A stretch of 21,382 nt of DNA from Gemmatimonadota bacterium. Lineage in GTDB: Bacteria; Gemmatimonadota; Gemmatimonadetes; Longimicrobiales; RSA9. The stretch is from positions 1-21,382 of the forward strand of contig JBBDRO010000086.1 in NCBI GenBank assembly GCA_040905425.1. Direction: 5' to 3'. This document shows positions 1-16,731 of the stretch, piece by piece. A program made the position numbers and the translations under genes. How positions within the stretch are numbered: the stretch's first letter is position 1; each line of letters begins with the position of its first letter. Under the pieces are notes generated by a model, which saw only the letters and a program-made list of their open reading frames with translations, had not been told where the DNA came from and did not search any database.

Positions 1-640
1 CGTGGACTACCTCGAGATCCCGGTGGCGCTGGACGGCCTTGCCGTGGTCACGAATCCCGCCAGCGACTTCGTGGCGTGCCTGACCACGGAGGAGCTGGCC
101 AGCGTCTGGGAGCCGGGCAGCACGGTGAACCGCTGGTCGCAGATCCGGGACGGCTTCCCCGACGAGGAGATCCGGCTCTACGGGCCCGGTACCAACTCGG
201 GGACCTTCGACTACTTCACCGAGGAGATCATGGGTGAGGCGGGGGCCAGCCGCTCCGATTACAGCGCCAGCGAGGATGACAACGTGCTGGTGCAGGGCGT
301 GGAGGGGGACCGCTTCTCACTGGGCTACTTCGGCTACGCGTATTACGAGGAGAACCAGGACCGCCTGAAGGCGCTCGGCGTGGACGGCGGCAGCGGCTGC
401 GTGCAGCCCACGCCGGAGGCCGTCACCTCCGGCGCGTACCCGATCGCGCGGCCGCTCTTCATCTACGTGAGCCGGAGCGCGCTGGAGCGCCCCGAGGTGC
501 ACGCCTTCGTGAGCTTCTACCTGGAGAACGCCGCGGAGCTGGTGCCCCAGGTGGGCTACGTGGCGCTCGACCCGACCGAGTACGAGAGCGCGCGGGCCGA
601 GCTCGGGGCCGCGCCGGCGCCCGGGCCCGCGGGGTCGTGA
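1..640 (+). CDS. pstS: Phosphate ABC transporter substrate-binding protein, 5'-truncated by the window edge
   Basis: Motifs [42 protein letters not shown] and [10 protein letters not shown]. First gene of a pstSCAB-phoU cluster. Confidence 0.95.
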
Positions 641-641
641 C

Positions 642-1586
642 GTGAAGGGGGGCGCAGCCGCGGCGGCTCAGGGCGCCTCCTTCGGCACCGGCGCGGCCGG
701 GCTGAAGCGACGCCATGTGAAGGAGCGCTTCGTGGAGGCGGTGCTGCTGGCCTTCAGCGCGGTCTCGATCCTGACCACGGTGGGGATCGTGGCGGTCCTG
801 CTCTTCGAGTCCCTGGCCTTCTTCGGTGAGGTGTCCCCCCTGACTTTCCTCACCGGGACCAAGTGGACGCCGCTCTTCCAGGACCAGAGCTTCGGCGTGC
901 TGCCGTTGCTCGTGGGATCGCTGGTAATCGCAGGGGGCGCGGCGCTCGTGGCGCTGCCGCTCGGACTGCTCGCGGCCATCTACCTGGCCGAATACGCACG
1001 CAACGGTGTGCGCCGCGTTTTGAAGCCCGTCCTGGAGATCCTGGCGGGCGTGCCCACCGTGGTCTACGGCTACTTCGCGCTCACCTTCGTGACGCCCATC
1101 CTGAAGGGCATCTGGCCCGGCATGGACACCTACAACGCCCTCTCCGCGGCGCTGGTCATGGGCGTCATGATCATCCCCATGGTGTCCTCCCTCTCCGAGG
1201 ACGCCATGAGCGCGGTGCCGCGCTCACTGCGGGAGGGCGCGTACGCGCTGGGCGCCACGAAGTTCGAGGTCGCCACGCGCACCGTGTTGCCAGCGGCGCT
1301 GTCGGGCATCGTCGCTTCCTTCATCCTGGCGGTCTCCCGGGCTATCGGGGAGACCATGATCGTGACCATCGCGGCCGGCGCCACCGCGAACCTTACGCTG
1401 AATCCGCTCAAGAGCGTGCAGACCATGACCGCCTACATCGCGCAGACCGCCACCGGGGAGGCGCCGCACGGGTCGGTGGAGTACCGGACCATCTTCGCGG
1501 TGGGGCTCACGCTCTTTGCCATCACCCTGCTCATGAACCTGGTGAGCGCCGTGGTGCTGCGCCGCTACCGGGAGGCCTACGAATGA
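642..1586 (+). CDS. pstC: Phosphate ABC transporter permease PstC
   Basis: Multi-TM protein with [13 protein letters not shown], the EAA loop [18 protein letters not shown] and SRAIGETM. The GTG start is uncertain. Confidence 0.95.
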
Positions 1587-2548
1587 GCGCGCAAGATCCG
1601 CGGGCGGACGCGGCCGCGGCGGAGTCGCCGGCCACCCAGGTGGACACGGCGGCGGGGCCGCATCCGGCGGTGCAACGGGACCCCGAGCGCTTTGCGCCGC
1701 GCCTGGTGGGTCGGCGGCGCTGGGGGGTGGCGTTTCAAGCTCTCTGCCTGGCGGCCACGCTGGTGGGCGTGGTGGTGCTGGCACTCCTGCTGGTGGACAT
1801 CATCATGGACGGGGCGGGTCGGTTGTCCCTGGCGTTCCTGGACAACTTCCCCTCCCGCTTCGCGGACCGCTCGGGGGTGAAACCGGCGCTCTGGGGCTCG
1901 GCGTGGGCGCTGCTCCTCACGGTGCTGATCGCCTTCCCGCTGGGTGTGGGGACCGCCATCTGGCTGGAGGAGTACGCGCCCGACAACCGCTTCACGCGGC
2001 TGGTGGAGACCAACATTGCCAACCTGGCGGGCGTGCCCTCCATCGTGTACGGCATCCTGGGACTGGCGCTCTTCGTGCGCGCCCTGGCCATGGGCCGGAC
2101 GCTGCTGGCGGCGGGGGCTACGCTGGCACTCCTCATTCTGCCGGTCATCGTGGTGGCCTCTCAGGAGGCCTTGAAGGCGGTGCCCGGATCCATCCGGCTG
2201 GGCGCGTACGCGCTCGGCGCCACCCGCTGGGAGGCGGTCCGCTACCACGTCTTCCCGCTGGCGCTGCCGGGGATCCTGACCGGCACCATCCTGGCGCTCT
2301 CCCGCGCCGTGGGGGAGACGGCGCCGGTCATCATGGTGGGTGCGCTGGCCTTCATGTCCTATGTGCCCGACCATCCACTGGACGATGGGTTCACCGTGCT
2401 GCCCTTCCAGCTCTATTCCTGGGTGGCCAAGCCGGGCGCCGACTTCCAGGAACTGGCCGCCGCCACCGGCATCGTGCTGCTGGTGCTGCTGCTCATCATG
2501 AACGGCGGGGCCATCTACCTGCGTAACAAGTTCACCGGGGAGCGCTAG
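1583..2548 (+). CDS. pstA: Phosphate ABC transporter permease PstA
   Basis: ATG 1583 overlaps the pstC TGA (ATGA). Motifs [14 protein letters not shown] and [10 protein letters not shown]. The track start at 863 is a spurious extension. Confidence 0.95.
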
Positions 2549-3357
2549 TGTCCACACACGGCAGTACCGTGGCGGAGAGCACCACCGAATCCATCCTGAC
2601 GCCGCCGGGGCAGCACGAGCTGGAGGCGCGGGAGCTGACTGTCCTCTACGGGGAGACGCCGGCGGTCAAGGGCGTGTCCATCAAGATCCCCGACCGCAAG
2701 GTGGTGGCCTTCATCGGCCCCTCGGGGTGTGGCAAGAGCACGCTGCTGCGCTGTTTCAACAGGATGAATGACCTCATCCCGGGCGCCCGGGTGGAGGGGG
2801 AGGCCCTCTTCCAGGGCCAGAACCTCTACGAGCGGCGCGTGGACCCCGTGGACGTGCGGCGGCGCATAGGGATGGTGTTCCAGAAGCCCAACCCGTTCCC
2901 CAAGTCCGTCCACGACAACATTGCCTTCGGCCCGCGCATCAACGGCTACAGCGGAGACATGGGCGAACTGGTGGAGCGCTCGCTGCGCCAGGCCGCGCTG
3001 TGGGACGAGGTCAAGGACCGCCTGGACGCCAGCGCGCTGGCGCTGTCGGGCGGCCAGCAGCAGCGGCTGTGCATTGCCCGCGCGCTGGCCGTGGAGCCCG
3101 AGGTGCTGCTCATGGACGAGCCGGCCTCGGCGCTGGATCCCATTGCCACGCAGAAGATCGAGGACCTCATCTACGAGCTGAAGCGCGACTACACGGTGGT
3201 CATCGTGACGCACAACATGCAGCAGGCGGCGCGCGTTTCCGACTACACCGCATTCCTTTACATGGGGGAGCTGGTGGAGTACGGTGCCACGAAGGGGATC
3301 TTCACGACCCCGCGGGAGGATCGCACGGAAGCCTACATCACCGGGAGGTTCGGATGA
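2548..3357 (+). CDS. pstB: Phosphate ABC transporter ATP-binding protein
   Basis: Walker [19 protein letters not shown], signature LSGGQQQR, Walker B LLMDEP, THNMQQA and C-terminal YITGRFG. Confidence 0.97.
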
Positions 3358-4061
3358 GCCAGCGTCACTTCCAGGACCAGCTGGACCTCCTCAAGTCCCA
3401 ACTGGTGGCCATGGCCGGCCTGGCGGAGGACGCGGTCAAGGAGGCGGTCCTGGCCCTCCTGAACCGGGATCCGGAGCGCGCGCAGCGGGTGATCGAGCGG
3501 GATGACGCCCTGGATGATCTGGAAGTTGAGATCGAGGAGCAGGCCGTGAATCTGCTGGCCCTGCAGCAGCCCATGGCGCGGGACCTCCGGCTCATCACCA
3601 TGGCCATGAAGATCTCCAGTGACCTGGAGCGCGTGGGGGATCACGCCGTCAACATTGCCGACACGCTGAGCTATCTCGTGGACGCGCCGGTCTTTCCGGT
3701 GCTCCCGGAGATCGAGGAGATGACCCGTGTTGCGGGGGACATGCTGGGGGAGTCACTCGACGCCTTCGTGCGGCGGGACAGCGAGCTGGCCCGCAAGGTG
3801 CTGAAAATGGACGACCGGGTGGACGAGCTGCACGACAACAACTTCCGCATTCTGCTCACCCACATGATGGAGGATCCGCGTAAGATCACCGCGGGCATGG
3901 ACCTGCTGCTCATCTCCGGCAACCTGGAGCGCATCGCCGACCTGGCCACCAACATCTGCGAAGAGGTCATCTACATGGTGGAGGGGCGCACGGTGAAGCA
4001 TCACCAGGAGCGTGGCGGGCAGCCGCCGGCGCCGGATGGGAGCGCGGCGGAACCGGCCTGA
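3354..4061 (+). CDS. phoU: Phosphate signalling complex protein PhoU
   Basis: ATG 3354 overlaps the pstB stop. Motifs [21 protein letters not shown] and [13 protein letters not shown] (two PhoU repeats). Confidence 0.96.
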
Positions 4062-10796: not shown

Positions 10797-10870
10797 GCGC
10801 CCGTAGCTCAATTGGATAGAGCACCTGACTACGGATCAGGAGGTTTCAGGTTCGAGTCCTGACGGGCGCA
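10797..10870 (+). tRNA. tRNA-Arg(ACG), CCA not encoded
   Basis: Acceptor GCGCCCG/CGGGCGC-A, D arm TAGCTCAATTGGATAGAGC, anticodon arm CCTGA-CTACGGA-TCAGG, T loop TTCGAGT. Confidence 0.97.
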
Positions 10871-10916
10871 TGATACACCATCCCCCGTTGGGGATCGCGG
10901 GCGGGTGACCGCCCGT

Positions 10917-10929
10917 TGCTGTTTGACAA
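10917..10929 (+). promoter_or_regulatory. boxA-like antitermination element preceded by hairpins
   Basis: TGCTGTTTGACA matches the E. coli rrn boxA TGCTCTTTAACA at 10 of 12 positions. It follows the stem GCGGGCGG/CCGCCCGT. Confidence 0.45.
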
Positions 10930-11303
10930 CCGGGAGACGAGTGCGGATCGCGGCCGCGGCCTGCGGGCCTGTGGTCGAGGAAAGTCCGAGCTCCGCAGGG
11001 CAGGGTGCCGGCTAACGGCCGGGCGCCGCGAGGCGATGGAAAGTGCAACAGAGAGTAGACCGCCGATGGCCCCTTCAGGGGCACAGGCAAGGGTGAAACG
11101 GTGGGGTAAGAGCCCACCGCGCTCCCGGCAACGGTGAGCGGCACGGCAAACCCCACCTGGAGCAAGGCCGAATAAGGAACGAGGCGTAGCCCGCGCCATT
11201 CGAGTTCCGGGTAGGCCGCACGAGGCATGATGAGAGTCGTGTCCCAGAGAAATGATCCGCCCGCGCTCCGGCGTGGACAGAACTCGGCTTATTCGTCTCC
11301 CGG
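10930..11303 (+). ncRNA. rnpB: RNase P RNA, bacterial type A
   Basis: P1 CCGGGAGACGAGT/ATTCGTCTCCCGG, P4 halves GAGGAAAGTCC and ACAGAACTCGGCTTA, plus GGAAAGTGCAACAGAG, GGGTGAAACGGTGGGGTAAGAGCCCACCG and GGAGCAAGGCC. Confidence 0.97.
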
Positions 11304-11344
11304 TGCACAGCGGCCGGCGCCCCGTAGGGGCGGCCCGGCATGAC

Positions 11345-11418
11345 GCGCCCGTAGCTCAGCTGGATAGAGCGCTTGCCTCCGGAGCAAGAGGTCACAGGTT
11401 CGACTCCTGTCGGGCGCA
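11345..11418 (+). tRNA. tRNA-Arg(CCG), CCA not encoded
   Basis: Acceptor GCGCCCG/CGGGCGC-A, anticodon arm CTTGC-CTCCGGA-GCAAG, T arm ACAGG-TTCGACT-CCTGT. Confidence 0.97.
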
Positions 11419-11426
11419 TTGATATG

Positions 11427-11475
11427 ACGACGAGAGCCCCACCCGGTGCCGCTGACCAGGTGGGGCTCTCGTCGT
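11427..11475. terminator. Strong hairpin between convergent units, likely bidirectional terminator
   Basis: ACGACGAGAGCCCCACC/GGTGGGGCTCTCGTCGT is a perfect 17-bp stem starting 8 nt after the tRNA. No U-tract. Confidence 0.7.
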
Positions 11476-11578
11476 GCGGGGCCGCGGCTCCCCGGGTGCA
11501 AGCCCCGACCCCGACGGCCCGGGTAGGTTCCGCCGCGGAGGCGGTGTCCGGTCTTCCGCGGCGCCGGTGGCCGGTTAT

Positions 11579-12103
11579 TCAGCCAGCCGCCTCCCCGCGT
11601 GGTGTGCGGCCGGCACGGGACTCCAGCAGGGACTCCGTGAAGCGCAGCCGCTCCTCCAGTCGTTCCAGCCTCTCCTCGAGCGCGAAGTCATCGCGCTTTC
11701 CCGGCGCTTCCACCCGGGCCTCCGCAGCGGCCTCGGCGGCCAGGCGCCTCCCCGGCAGCCACAGCCCGAGCCAGACCAGCAGGGACACCGCCAGCACGAG
11801 CAGTCCGAAGAGCGTGGTAATCAGCGATATGCCGAACCCGCCCCAGATCAGGGATGTGTGCATGGTGCCCGCCCGCTCCACATTACGGGCTATCTGCATC
11901 CACCCCACCACCGTGCCCAGGACGCCCAGCACCACGGCGAAACCGCCCCAGAAGGGTATGGCGGCGATCGCGGCGTGCGCTCGGGGCGAGCGCTCCGTGT
12001 CCAGCAGCCTGCGACCGCCCTTGGCAGCCAGGGCAAGGACGATGAGCGCGCACACGAGGATCGGCCACATCATGAAGCCGCCGTTGTGGAAGAGTTCGAT
12101 CAC
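11579..12103 (-). CDS. Small MotA/TolQ/ExbB-like 3-TM protein with a C-terminal coiled-coil tail
   Basis: GGFMMWPILVC, LGVLGTVVG and GISLITTLFGL match ExbB/TolQ TM motifs. GGAGG RBS; the GTG overlaps the upstream TGA. Confidence 0.8.
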   Translation of the reverse strand: MIELFHNGGFMMWPILVCALIVLALAAKGGRRLLDTERSPRAHAAIAAIPFWGGFAVVLGVLGTVVGWMQIARNVERAGTMHTSLIWGGFGISLITTLFGLLVLAVSLLVWLGLWLPGRRLAAEAAAEARVEAPGKRDDFALEERLERLEERLRFTESLLESRAGRTPRGEAAG

Positions 12104-12870
12104 GGGACACCTCCAGTTGGATTCGAGTGCGTGGCTGGCACGGGCTGGCCCGCCTCCGCCCGCTCGACGGCGAGCGCCCTCCGGCGCAGGTGGAACCAGG
12201 CAAGGACGCCGCCCAGCCCCGACGTCAGCCCCAGGGCAAAGACTTCTGAAGCGCGCCGGAGCCGGGGCAACAACATGTCGGCCGACATGTTGCCGAGCCG
12301 GTTGACGTCATCGGCGATGCGGGACATCTCCCACACCCAGCCGAATCCTCCCACCAGCACGGCCGCGGCGGCCAGGACCATGAGCGGCATGAGGCCGGCC
12401 CGCAGCGACCCCGGCCGGTGGTCCTGCTTCACGACGAGCCGGAAGAATACCGCGCCGGTCACGGCCAGCGTGCCCGCCGCAAGCAGCAGCACCGGCCACA
12501 AGAAGGGCGAGGCGTCATTCAGGATGCCCTGGCCGGCCAGCGCGTTCGCGCCGACCAGCATGCCCACTAGCGTGATGCCTGTCAGCAGCCCCCGCTCCAC
12601 GCGGTGCCGACTCCCGTCGGAGAAGCGCGCCAGCAGCCGCTCCCAGGCCGGGCGGTGCACCTGCACCAGCGCCTCCACCGCCTCGGGTGACGCCCCGAGC
12701 GCCGCCTCCGCCCGCCGCAGCGCGTCCGCCTCGGCCAGGCCACGAGCCCGATAGGCCGCGTACAGATCCTCCAGATCGGCGGCCATCTCGTGGAGGATGC
12801 ACGCCCGGGTCGGCTGCGGCACCGTGAGGCGCGCCTCGACGCGCTGGAGCACGGCAGCAAAGCGGGTCAT
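12100..12870 (-). CDS. Membrane protein with an N-terminal HAAS-like helical domain and a degenerate ExbB-like TM region
   Basis: N-terminus ILHEMAADLEDLYAAYRARGLAEADALRRAEAALG is typical of PadR-associated HAAS/permease-prefix domains. About 4 TM segments. Confidence 0.75.
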   Translation of the reverse strand: MTRFAAVLQRVEARLTVPQPTRACILHEMAADLEDLYAAYRARGLAEADALRRAEAALGASPEAVEALVQVHRPAWERLLARFSDGSRHRVERGLLTGITLVGMLVGANALAGQGILNDASPFLWPVLLLAAGTLAVTGAVFFRLVVKQDHRPGSLRAGLMPLMVLAAAAVLVGGFGWVWEMSRIADDVNRLGNMSADMLLPRLRRASEVFALGLTSGLGGVLAWFHLRRRALAVERAEAGQPVPATHSNPTGGVP

Positions 12871-12877
12871 CGGGTCC

Positions 12878-13243
12878 TCAACCCGTGGCCAGGCCCGGCA
12901 TCAGCCCGTTGCCGTCGCCGAGCACGCCGAGGAGGCGGGCAAACACCTCCCGCACCTCTCCGGTTCCCTCGCCCAGGCGCGCCCGTCCCGGACGCGTCAG
13001 CACGTATTCCTTGCGCTTCCGACCGTCCCCGGCAGACCACTCGCCCGCGATGAGCCCCTCGCGCTCGAGCCGGTGGAGGATGGGGTAGAGGGTGCCGTGC
13101 TGGAGGTTGAACATCCCCGCGCTCCGCTCCTCCAGCTCCAGGGCGATCTGGTAGCCGTGCATGGGGCCCTCCCGTAGCGCGGAGAGGACGAGGAGTTCGT
13201 TGATGCTCTTGGCGAACGACTGGGTGTCCAGCGTCGAGTGCAT
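12878..13243 (-). CDS. PadR-family transcriptional regulator
   Basis: LLVLSALREGPMHGYQI, GTLYPILHRLEREGLI and RKRKEYVLTRPGR. Confidence 0.95.
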   Translation of the reverse strand: MHSTLDTQSFAKSINELLVLSALREGPMHGYQIALELEERSAGMFNLQHGTLYPILHRLEREGLIAGEWSAGDGRKRKEYVLTRPGRARLGEGTGEVREVFARLLGVLGDGNGLMPGLATG

Positions 13244-13267
13244 GGGTCCGCAGCCTGTGTCGGCGGG

Positions 13268-13292
13268 CTATATGTTGACGATCTATACATAG
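13268..13292. promoter_or_regulatory. AT-rich imperfect palindrome, candidate PadR operator
   Basis: CTATATGTTGACGATCTATACATAG contains TATGT-N11-ACATA and lies about 25 nt upstream of the padR ATG. Confidence 0.55.
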
Positions 13293-13548
13293 CGTGTCTT
13301 TGCCTCGAGCGCAAGGCGGATGAGCAAGGAGCCCCACCCGGCGGCCGGGTGGGGCGAGGTGTGCATACGCATACAAGGCCATTGGAGGTGGGCTGCACCG
13401 TCCGTTAGGGACGCGTCCCCACAGCGGTCGCGGGCATCGCCCGACTGCGCCGCGCGCGGCCGGGTCCGATCATGGTACCGTCAACGCCCCCGCCTCATCG
13501 CGCGCAATCCGGGGCGTCCATCCCCGCCAGCCGCACAGGAGACGGCCC

Positions 13549-14373
13549 ATGGACCGACCCCGGCTGCCGCGCCGCGCCCATGCCCATGCCGCGCTCGCCA
13601 CCACGGCTCTGACCGTGCTCCTTGCGTGCCCGGCGCACCTGGCGGCGCAGTCGGCCGCGGGGTCGCGCTGGGCGGTGGACGCGGTGGTGGCCCGCACCGT
13701 CCAGTCCGACGAACTGGCCTCACCGCTCCGCTACCGCGGACTCGGACCGGGCGTGGCACTCGGCTACGAGCGGGTTGGGCCCACCTCACGCTCGGGTCTC
13801 CAACTCCTCTACATGCGACCTTCGCTCACGTCGGACATCTCGCGTGGGGCCACCTTCGTCGAGGCCGGCCACCGGATGCGGATAAGCGTGCCGCACCTGC
13901 GCAAGGTACGCGAGCGGCAGCGGCTGACGCTCCTGCTCGGCGGCCAACTGGCCGGCGACGCGTACTATCGCCGGCATGATTACGCGCCGTTCTCGGAGCA
14001 CTACCTCGACGCGTTCCTCCTGCTGCAGGTCATGACCGCGGTAGAGTGGCGCCCCGGCCCTGACCTCCGGATCGAGCAGCGCCTTGCGGTGCCGCTGGCA
14101 GGCGTGGCCTGGCGGGGCGCCTACACCGGCCTCAAGTACGGTCCATCGGCTCGCTTCGAGCTGCCGCACCGGCTCCAGGGACTCACCCACTCGGTGGGCG
14201 TGTCACGGGCGGTGGGCTCCGGCGTGGCGCTCCGCGCGGCCCACGAGGTCGGCATGCTGCGCCACCCGGATCCCTGGCGCTTGGCGGTGCTCACCCAGAG
14301 GCTCAGCGTGGGGCTGGAATGGCGGCGCGGTGGCGCGGCGATGGGGCCTGGGGTGACGGAGGCGGGACGATGA
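13549..14373 (+). CDS. Exported protein, probable outer-membrane beta-barrel
   Basis: Signal peptide ending LAA-Q, alternating amphipathic strands (GVALGYER, LSVGLEWR) and ASPLRYRG. GGAG RBS. Confidence 0.65.
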   Translation: MDRPRLPRRAHAHAALATTALTVLLACPAHLAAQSAAGSRWAVDAVVARTVQSDELASPLRYRGLGPGVALGYERVGPTSRSGLQLLYMRPSLTSDISRGATFVEAGHRMRISVPHLRKVRERQRLTLLLGGQLAGDAYYRRHDYAPFSEHYLDAFLLLQVMTAVEWRPGPDLRIEQRLAVPLAGVAWRGAYTGLKYGPSARFELPHRLQGLTHSVGVSRAVGSGVALRAAHEVGMLRHPDPWRLAVLTQRLSVGLEWRRGGAAMGPGVTEAGR

Positions 14374-15383: not shown

Positions 15384-15519
15384 GCGGGCTGCCCATCGGT
15401 GGGTCAGGGCGCCGACGCGCTTGACCAGCGCGGCGCTCTCCGCCCAGGTTGCAGCCGGAAGTTGATCACGGCCGCTGTGCTTGCTTGTTCCCGGCGCCTC
15501 CTCGCAAACGACGCCCCCG

Positions 15520-16731
15520 ATGCGAACGATCCTCACGCTGCTCCCAGGACTGTGCCTTCTCCTCTCCGCGTGTGGCGCGGCGGACCCGACCGCGGACTTC
15601 GACCCCACCGCGGCCGTGCATGACAGCGCCGGCATTCGCATGGTGACCAATCCGGATGTCCCCCTGCCTCGCTGGACGGTGGACAGCGTCCCCGCGCTGA
15701 CCATCGGCACGCTGGAAGGACTGGACGGGCACGACCTGGGCAACCCCCGCGGCTCGGTGCGTCTGCCGGATGGCGGCGTGGCCATCTCCGATTATACCAC
15801 GCGACAGCTGCGGTTCTACGACCGCACCGGGAAGCACGTGCGCTCCGTGGGCGGCCGGGGGAGCGGGCCCGGAGAATTTGCCTCGGTGGCCGTCATTTAC
15901 AGGGGGCGTGGTGACTCGCTCGTGGTGTCGGACACCGGGCGGCGCCGGCTCACCATCCTGGACGCTCAGGGTGAGCTGGGACGAACCCTCTCGTTGGATG
16001 ACTGGGACGGACCGCAGCCGCTGCTGCGGGGGCTGCTGCACGATTCGATCGTGGTGTTCCGGGTCATCCATCGCGGGTCGGGTGTAGCGCCGATCGGGTC
16101 GTACCGCGAACCGGTGGAGGTTTTCTACCGTTCGCTTGACGGCGGTGCGTACCGATCTATCGGCCACTTCCCGGGTGGCCTGAGGTTCCGCATCGTGGAT
16201 CCCGACGGTGTGGGTGGCTGGGGTCCTGCGGTGCCCTACAACCGGGAGTTTCAGGCGGCCGTGACGGATTCACAGGTGTGGATCGGCGAGGCCGAAGGCT
16301 ACGGTTTCGAGGTCTATGACGTAGCCGGCCGGCTACGCTCGATCGTGCGGCTCGATCGGCCAGGCAGCCCGGTGGGCCCGGCCGAGCGTGACCATTGGCA
16401 CGAGCGCCAGCGGGCCCTGGACGATCGTGAGGTGTGGCAGCGGCGCGTGCGGCAGGCGGCGGAGCTGGTCCCGTTCCCGCCGGTCATGCCGCCGTATTCC
16501 ACCATGCTCGCGGACGCGAACGGGCGGATCTGGGTCGGCGAGTATCAGCCACCGGGTGCCACGGAGCCGCAAAGCTGGCGGGTGTTCGACGCGGACGGCC
16601 AGCAGCTGGCCACCACCACCATGCCGCAGGGCGTCAGCGTGCACCAGATCGGTGATGATTATGTGCTCGGCAGGTGGACGGGTAACCTCGGCGTACCCCA
16701 CGTAGGGGTGTTCCGCATTGCCTTCGAGTAA
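15520..16731 (+). CDS. Lipoprotein, probable 6-bladed beta-propeller (NHL-like)
   Basis: Lipobox LLSA-C, RFYDRTGKHVRSVGGRGSGPGEF, DANGRIWV and WRVFDADG. Confidence 0.82.
   Translation: MRTILTLLPGLCLLLSACGAADPTADFDPTAAVHDSAGIRMVTNPDVPLPRWTVDSVPALTIGTLEGLDGHDLGNPRGSVRLPDGGVAISDYTTRQLRFYDRTGKHVRSVGGRGSGPGEFASVAVIYRGRGDSLVVSDTGRRRLTILDAQGELGRTLSLDDWDGPQPLLRGLLHDSIVVFRVIHRGSGVAPIGSYREPVEVFYRSLDGGAYRSIGHFPGGLRFRIVDPDGVGGWGPAVPYNREFQAAVTDSQVWIGEAEGYGFEVYDVAGRLRSIVRLDRPGSPVGPAERDHWHERQRALDDREVWQRRVRQAAELVPFPPVMPPYSTMLADANGRIWVGEYQPPGATEPQSWRVFDADGQQLATTTMPQGVSVHQIGDDYVLGRWTGNLGVPHVGVFRIAFE

Follow-up and report, generated by a model that had tools for sequence, protein, structure and literature searches.

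A putative autoregulated HAAS-PadR operon with two ExbB/TolQ-like membrane proteins and no linked ExbD in a Gemmatimonadota bacterium

A stretch of 21,382 nucleotides (nt) from Gemmatimonadota bacterium assembly GCA_040905425.1 (contig JBBDRO010000086.1, positions 1 to 21,382), hereafter the window, carries three tightly packed open reading frames (ORFs) on its minus strand, transcribed in the order padR, gene 2 and gene 3. As called, padR (12878-13243) encodes 121 amino acids (aa), gene 2 (12100-12870) 256 aa and gene 3 (11579-12103), which has a GTG start, 174 aa. The padR stop is followed after 7 nt by the start of gene 2, and the gene 2 stop overlaps the GTG start of gene 3 by 4 nt (GTGA); the ORF coordinates agree with the compact three-gene operon described in the original prediction, made from the sequence alone. 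The operon holds exactly these three genes because a convergent tRNA-Arg gene (11345-11418) lies on its 3' side, followed by the RNase P RNA (10933-11304) and a second tRNA-Arg, and a divergent ORF without a Pfam match (13549-14373) lies on its 5' side. With a probability of roughly 0.55, the triad is best explained as an autoregulated HAAS-PadR membrane-signalling operon, the sensor of which is made from ExbB/TolQ-type channel subunits with a paralogue as partner and without an axle subunit.

The first 125 residues of the gene 3 product (11729-12103, minus strand) form a short three-helix protein of the MotA/ExbB/TolQ family, matching PF01618 (MotA_ExbB) with 37.2 bits against a gathering cut-off of 22.9. 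The gene 3 family aligned in hhalign with 35 canonical ExbB sequences (score 146, E 2.7e-22), and its profile retrieved MotA (E 3.4e-7), TolQ (1.8e-6) and ExbB (1e-4) from the PDB. The AF2 model (pLDDT 79.9) consists of three long helices; the large cytoplasmic domain is missing and reduced to a loop of about 20 residues. In HMMER alignments to solved TolQ, residues T64 and T97 fall on TolQ T145 and T178, which bears out the claim that gene 3 keeps the channel threonines, and the two positions are T or S in 39/40 and 36/40 family members, respectively. The place of TolQ E173, the Glu before the third transmembrane helix (ExbB E176), is taken by I92 in gene 3 and across the family by V (29/40), E (6/40) or I (3/40).

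The remainder of the gene 3 product (residues 126-174 and the stop codon, 11579-11728, minus strand) is a C-terminal helical extension, modelled by AF2 as part of a single long helix (83-164). It is present in five of the 24 aligned sequences, i.e., the window protein and its closest relatives only (P0018, P0019, P0020 and P0021). A BPSS1780 match for gene 3 (26 bits against a cut-off of 90) was set aside. The small subunit has been duplicated again in some lineages, since at two related loci (L012 and L087) gene 3 is immediately followed by another gene 3-like paralogue. At another locus (L057:9063-10568, plus strand, genome G239) a gene 3 homologue runs on in frame, without a stop, into an extra membrane helix and a 375-aa domain homologous to a beta-propeller-like ORF of the window (15481-16731; BLASTP E 7e-11), which may be either a natural fusion or an assembly error.

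The membrane part of gene 2 is far more diverged. The window protein matches no Pfam family above the cut-off and has no PF01618 match at all, and only one of 15 gene 2 family members is matched by PF01618 (E 7.9e-4). Its kinship with gene 3 became visible at the family level. Comparing alignments of 15 and 24 sequences, hhalign returned a probability of 97.5% and an E of 7.9e-12; alignments of 34 and 40 sequences gave 3.8e-12, and a third comparison 2e-13 (score 84.9, 125 columns). The matches span 123-126 columns, covering all three helices, with probabilities of 97.5-98%, and the C-terminal part of gene 2 alone still matched the gene 3 family (E 3.3e-13, score 80.9). In comparison, the score fell to 15.8 (E 0.089) when the gene 3 alignment was reversed and did not exceed 13.9 (E at least 0.18) in any of 30 column shuffles. 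The likeness of the two proteins noted by eye in the original prediction was therefore upheld for the families (E 2e-13 to 7.9e-12, controls at E 0.089 or above) but not for the two window proteins taken as a pair, for which BLASTP was not significant, with a best E of 0.16 in the first helix only.

Three independent lines of evidence pointed the same way. In the PDB search, TolQ or ExbB made up the top seven of eight matches to the gene 2 family profile, the best being a solved TolQ (E 5.6e-5); in whole-genome searches the gene 2 profile picked up the adjoining gene 3 (E 1e-7 to 5e-12); and in Foldseek the top matches of the gene 2 and gene 3 models were all ExbB/TolQ (E 0.01-0.05, about 0.04 for gene 2). 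A VIT1 match for gene 2 (E 0.013) was under the cut-off and was set aside. Judged from these profile comparisons, the gene 2 module (residues 115-241, 12148-12528, minus strand) is homologous to the three-helix core of ExbB/TolQ in degenerate form, with the gene 3 family as its nearest relative. It stands closer to gene 3 (the score of 84.9 over 125 columns) than to the 35 canonical ExbB sequences (43.6 over 85 columns), and gene 3 is firmly ExbB-like; because of this pattern, the pair fits a tandem duplication with faster subsequent divergence of the copy that gained an extra helix and an N-terminal domain.

The divergence extends to the pore. HMMER alignment to solved TolQ places W178 and F211 of gene 2 at TolQ T145 and T178, consistent with the claimed loss of the channel threonines, and the majority residues at these positions across the gene 2 family are A and L. 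R206 stands at the E173 position in alignments to E. coli and A. baumannii TolQ. Other positions are well conserved, particularly W125 (33/34), G177 (31/34) and W225 (34/34), and E or D is found at 181 in 24/34 members. A complex prediction for gene 2 (85-245) and gene 3 (1-130), given as alignments, scored 0.00 with controls not run and weighs neither way.

In front of the membrane module, gene 2 encodes a helical domain of the HAAS type, also known as 'permease prefix 1' (residues 1-84, 12619-12870, minus strand), and an extra transmembrane helix, TM0 (residues 85-113, 12532-12618, minus strand), which the original prediction had not noted. By definition, a HAAS domain has three helices, with a kink at a GxP motif in the third, and is obligatorily paired with a standalone PadR-like gene (PMC11237479). 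Residues 25-66 of gene 2 match NCBIfam NF038403, 'permease prefix domain 1' (E 5.7e-5), as do 14/15 family members (best E 2.6e-8). Moreover, the N-terminal part of the gene 2 profile matches MacB_PCD/FtsX permeases of 570-925 aa in the same phylum, each with padR directly upstream. The gene 2 N-terminus is linked to HAAS because of the NF038403 matches and these padR-linked permeases, and on this evidence and its context, it was filed as HAAS-type. The domain precedes four predicted membrane helices, as expected of a HAAS placed N-terminally to a multi-helix or sensory domain, and a standalone gene for a PadR-like winged helix-turn-helix (wHTH) protein lies alongside in 29/30 and 45/46 loci of two surveys (see below). 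The two-part make-up of gene 2 claimed in the original prediction, a HAAS-like domain joined to an ExbB-like one, is thereby sustained by NF038403, the permeases, hhalign and the TolQ profile match.

The AF2 model of gene 2 (pLDDT 86.5, with a 34-sequence alignment as input) has N-terminal helices at 5-14, 21-42, 47-59, 62-71 and 75-81, with a break at G59-A-S-P62, and four long helices, i.e., TM0 at 85-113 followed by 124-146, 153-192 and 197-241. Because TM0 is present, the HAAS domain lies in the cytoplasm, and the loop charges, as judged from the sequence, fit an arrangement with HAAS inside and the next loop outside, followed by the ExbB-like N-out/C-in order in the last three helices. 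At the cytoplasmic end of TM0, E92 is kept in 29/34 family members and R93 in 27/34. One might imagine from this that gene 2 supplies its own axle, with TM0 helices and E92 inside the ring in the place of the ExbD helices, giving a self-contained proton-driven rotary unit the rotation state of which is read by HAAS. TM0 has the same in-to-out orientation as the ExbD helix, the acidic residue at its cytoplasmic end is conserved, and the E or D at 181 lies in TM2. On the other hand, hhalign revealed no resemblance between TM0 and the transmembrane region of ExbD (E 0.86), leaving the idea without sequence support, and E92 lies at the membrane boundary beside R93. Such a built-in axle is considered highly improbable.

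The padR product matches PF03551 at residues 19-91 with 88.5 bits against a cut-off of 27 (E 3e-25), and also TIGR03433 (padR_acidobact) with an E of 2.5e-23, under that model's cut-off. By these matches it is a short, single-domain winged-helix repressor of the PadR family. An AT-rich repeat element (13268-13292, minus strand), 25-49 nt upstream of the padR start codon, stands within DNA of 70% GC, and similar repeats occur in related loci, eight of which have a perfect 10-nt inverted repeat with a 3-nt spacer upstream of padR. An ATAWAG-type hexamer was counted 33 times in 29 upstream stretches of 110 nt, compared to four times in about 103 kb of remaining locus DNA, with at least one copy in 18/29 stretches. 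The element is a candidate padR promoter and PadR operator, the repeats being suggestive of that function. Scanning 11300-13700 gave no sigma-70 promoter site and one terminator-like site, within gene 2, which is not above chance expectation.

The triad is widespread in the phylum. A profile search of 401 Gemmatimonadota genomes gave 45 strong places (E at most 2e-12) in 43 genomes, two of which have two copies; a larger tally of 87/401 genomes also includes partial matches to canonical ExbB and FtsX permeases, as well as a single weak match in an unpublished genome (G097) that supports none of the conclusions. Among the 30 best loci, padR, gene 2 and gene 3 follow in that order in 29, including one with gene 2 broken across two frames (L013) and one with two gene 3 copies (L012). 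The exception (L029, genome G367) has padR followed by a 151-aa HAAS-only protein (profile positions 3-91); the membrane module and gene 3 are both missing, and another padR-like ORF lies nearby. With start codons picked by script, padR and gene 2 are separated by a median of -4 nt and genes 2 and 3 by a median of 2 nt, and 27/29 of the gene 2-gene 3 gaps did not exceed 25 nt. When GTDB representative genomes were scanned separately, using the gene 3 family as query, 80 loci came up, 46 of which have gene 2 upstream of gene 3, with PadR also present in 45 of these 46. By label, 41 of the 46 are of the Gemmatimonadota type, four are metagenome-assembled genomes labelled Gammaproteobacteria and one is an 'uncultured bacterium'. 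The gene 2 family comprises 336 clusters (50% identity, E at most 1e-30) among 1.84 billion representatives, and the best 150 representatives are all 222-295 aa long and match nearly the full profile. The ESM Atlas puts the gene 2 protein in unnamed Gemmatimonadota clusters, and Pfam and NCBIfam have no family model for it.

MotA, ExbB and TolQ proteins are known as stators, and a B-subunit dimer is needed to turn ion flow into work. In the window, neither an ORF search nor a Pfam scan of its 29 ORFs found an ExbD-like gene, as the original prediction had stated, and there is no TonB or TolA gene. Near the conserved triads, too, ExbD was found in 0/21 loci within about 8 kb on either side and in 0/46 loci within 3.5 kb, MotB-type (OmpA-like) partners not having been searched separately. 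An ExbD-type B subunit encoded together with the A subunit, as is usual for 5:2 motors, is thus missing at the triad loci examined. The same three-sequence ExbD hidden Markov model (HMM) detected an adjacent ExbD in 30 of the remaining 34 scan loci, or in 30/32 once two gene 3-type loci at contig ends are set apart; since ExbD was found next door so regularly, these loci, which have longer canonical ExbB genes and come from Planctomycetota, Verrucomicrobiota, Ignavibacteria and others, serve as a positive control for the HMM. The lack of an ExbD-type partner is why the triad is probably a membrane-signalling switch rather than a motor.

Gene 3, with or without gene 2, might act as an alternative A subunit pairing in trans with an ExbD or TolR encoded elsewhere, in which case PadR would control a variant Ton or Tol motor. 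In favour of this, gene 3 belongs to PF01618 proper and retains the two pore Thr residues; short forms of ExbB exist, for instance TIGR02805 (exbB2), to which gene 3 has a weak match that was set aside (21 bits against a cut-off of 135, E 2.8e-4); and the genome to which the window belongs has three ExbD genes. However, all three adjoin canonical ExbB genes (two of the three in that genome), and each of five relatives examined has exactly three Pfam ExbD matches as well, all more than 250 kb from the triad or on another contig. Together with the surveys, the loss of the cytoplasmic domain in gene 3, the lack of Glu at the TolQ E173 position in 34/40 family members and the lack of TonB or TolA in the operon, this makes pairing in trans quite unlikely. 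Another canonical A-type gene of the genome (L001:1453-2142, minus strand, contig C28) encodes a 229-aa MotA_ExbB protein (E 2.8e-33), has no Pfam ExbD match nearby and adjoins a gene for a 484-aa GWxTD-domain protein; it is a second A-type subunit in this genome without a linked ExbD.

Gene 3 resembles the A subunits of 5:2 motors (e.g., PDB 5sv0, 8odt and 6ye4) in its three-helix core, in the G-x-x-G-T and T/S-x-x-G motifs and in its N-out/C-in topology; gene 2 has their fold and also keeps their conserved Pro and Gly landmarks. The triad differs from them in having no B subunit found in the operon or nearby, in the small size of its cytoplasmic loop, in the loss of both pore Thr and the Glu from gene 2, and in consisting of two tandem paralogues instead of a single A-subunit gene. 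The MotAB evolution paper PMC12505986 covers, in its available text, A-B pairs only.

Comparable in gene order are the HAAS-PadR-like wHTH dyads (PMC11237479) and the Listeria LltR-Lmo0600-Lmo0601 operon (PMC6624303). As in the triad, a short standalone PadR gene immediately precedes the gene for a membrane protein that begins with a three-helix signalling domain, a third gene completes the operon, and the arrangement appears autoregulatory. In the Listeria lltR operon, the membrane protein of which is of the DUF1700 type, autorepression exceeds 100-fold (PMC6624303). It has been proposed that HAAS-PadR dyads offer an alternative to two-component systems. The HAAS fusions listed in the available text of PMC11237479 are with PspC, LiaI-LiaF-TM, Toastrack, FtsX (the FtsX/MacB permease architecture being counted among them), FtsW/RodA, VanZ and 'uncharacterised 6TM, 4TM and 2TM' domains; no ExbB/TolQ module is named there, and the gene 2 family may be among the unnamed 4TM fusions. 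In the triad, by contrast, the membrane module is ExbB/TolQ-like and the third gene is its paralogue. As dyads with uncharacterised transmembrane domains are already in print, the triad is to be seen as a variant of them and not as wholly new, which tempers the claim of a novel system in the original prediction; the part of that claim that stands concerns the ExbB/TolQ module, of which no description within a HAAS-PadR dyad was found in the papers searched.

A third arrangement is found in the same phylum. The padR-linked permeases mentioned above, represented by L138 and L139 and by matches with open frames of 900-1000 aa, have the same prefix domain and the same upstream padR as gene 2. They differ in what comes after the prefix, an FtsX/MacB permease of 570-925 aa taking the place of TM0 and an ExbB-like module, and no paralogous small subunit accompanies them. 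These are presumably the permeases called 'ADOP-type'.

Genes 2 and 3 could be mainly the regulated output and not the sensor, a stress-induced membrane effector such as a small cation- or proton-leak channel or a membrane-stabilizing ring, with PadR responding to a small molecule and HAAS giving feedback only. PadR repressors commonly control the membrane effectors of their own operon, and the phenotype of the Listeria lltR mutant was traced to the membrane genes of the operon (PMC6624303). Moreover, because the pore-lining T/S positions of gene 3 are kept in 36-39 of 40 members, a maintained conducting pore is suggested. Against a purely effector role, HAAS is kept in every full-length member of the gene 2 family seen, the best 150 spanning the whole profile, and because of this conservation a signalling contact with PadR is argued. 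An operon serving mainly as effector is considered unlikely as the leading explanation, and it is compatible with a HAAS-PadR signalling role, the two not being mutually exclusive.

Several observations weigh against the signalling operon as outlined here. As regards the HAAS assignment, the NF038403 score of the window protein (22.9 bits) is under the curated cut-off of 30, and the GxP motif reads GxxP in this protein, in a region that is loose throughout the family (position 59 is G in 13/34 and V in 13/34 members, position 60 is P in 19/34). The HAAS-tied Pfam families DUF1700, DUF1129 and DUF1048 matched 0/15 gene 2 family members at E up to 1, with 25 of the 26 families found being listed, and PDB 2O3L was not among the PDB matches of the gene 2 profile at E up to 10. 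The structure matches of the membrane module are weak, as the Foldseek value of about 0.04 indicates, and in VIA-align gene 2 scored Z 10.3 with ExbB and 9.2 with TolQ, in a range common for helical bundles; because CorA reached Z 10.5, the fold search alone is indecisive between ExbB and other long helical bundles. Finally, the ATAWAG motif is absent from the examined 110 nt in 11/29 loci, and the upstream enrichment is suggestive only, because the motif was defined post hoc, from data already inspected.

With these points taken into account, the preferred reading of the triad as a HAAS-PadR signalling operon would work as follows. A PadR dimer would bind the AT-rich repeats in front of padR and so repress the operon. 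Gene 2 is anchored in the inner membrane by four helices, with TM0 putting HAAS in the cytoplasm and the last three helices forming the degenerate ExbB/TolQ module established by homology. Gene 3, the less diverged paralogue, which keeps the pore-lining hydroxyl residues and has no cytoplasmic domain, would most likely join gene 2 in an ExbB-like ring lacking an ExbD/TolR/MotB axle; we infer this co-assembly because of the paralogy, the strict co-occurrence and the tight gene spacing. A change in the membrane, for instance in proton-motive force (PMF), lipid packing or envelope damage, would alter the ring, and the alteration would be relayed to HAAS, which would capture or release PadR and thereby switch the operon on. 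This last step follows the prediction for HAAS-PadR dyads in PMC11237479. The original prediction had likewise proposed a mixed ring that senses PMF or envelope stress and holds or releases PadR through HAAS, and these parts of it stay putative. A more specific version, in which a ring of two ExbB/TolQ paralogues without an ExbD-type axle has ceased to be a motor and instead detects membrane state or PMF, with HAAS directly capturing PadR, is tentative and fairly unlikely. If true, the stator of a 5:2 motor would now serve as the input domain of a one-step transcription switch.

The surroundings of the triad in the window are of various kinds. The RNA cluster convergent with it (10797-11418, plus strand) comprises a class A bacterial RNase P RNA (274.8 bits, 10933-11304) flanked by two tRNA-Arg genes, with anticodons ACG (10797-10870) and CCG (11345-11418). 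Positions 1-4061 (plus strand) hold a phosphate-uptake cluster consisting of a PstS-like binding protein, two permeases, an ABC ATPase and PhoU, and the other genes of the window, besides these pst/phoU genes, include fatty-acid and dehydrogenase genes, CBS proteins, an S41 peptidase and others. The beta-propeller-like ORF (15481-16731, plus strand, 416 aa) has a weak six-bladed propeller match to DUF5128 (E 1.2e-4) and belongs to a hugely expanded family with 100 matches in its own 4.1-Mb genome. Homologues occur near the triad in 8/21 of the wide loci and, in six, directly upstream of padR on the same strand; given a family of that size, the proximity may be due to chance.

Overall, no description was found, in the papers searched or among Pfam and NCBIfam family models, of a HAAS fusion to an ExbB/TolQ-like module, of its obligate pairing with a short ExbB paralogue, or of the consistent absence of the B subunit. 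A conserved pair of A-type paralogues free of a B subunit, one of them wired to a transcription factor, would show that the stator fold is reusable for signalling, and the triad would offer a simple way to study the action of an ExbB-like ring by itself. To the HAAS-PadR dyads, the sensors of which mostly lack names, it adds a defined membrane module. The family is unannotated and mostly confined to Gemmatimonadota, a phylum with few studied regulatory systems.

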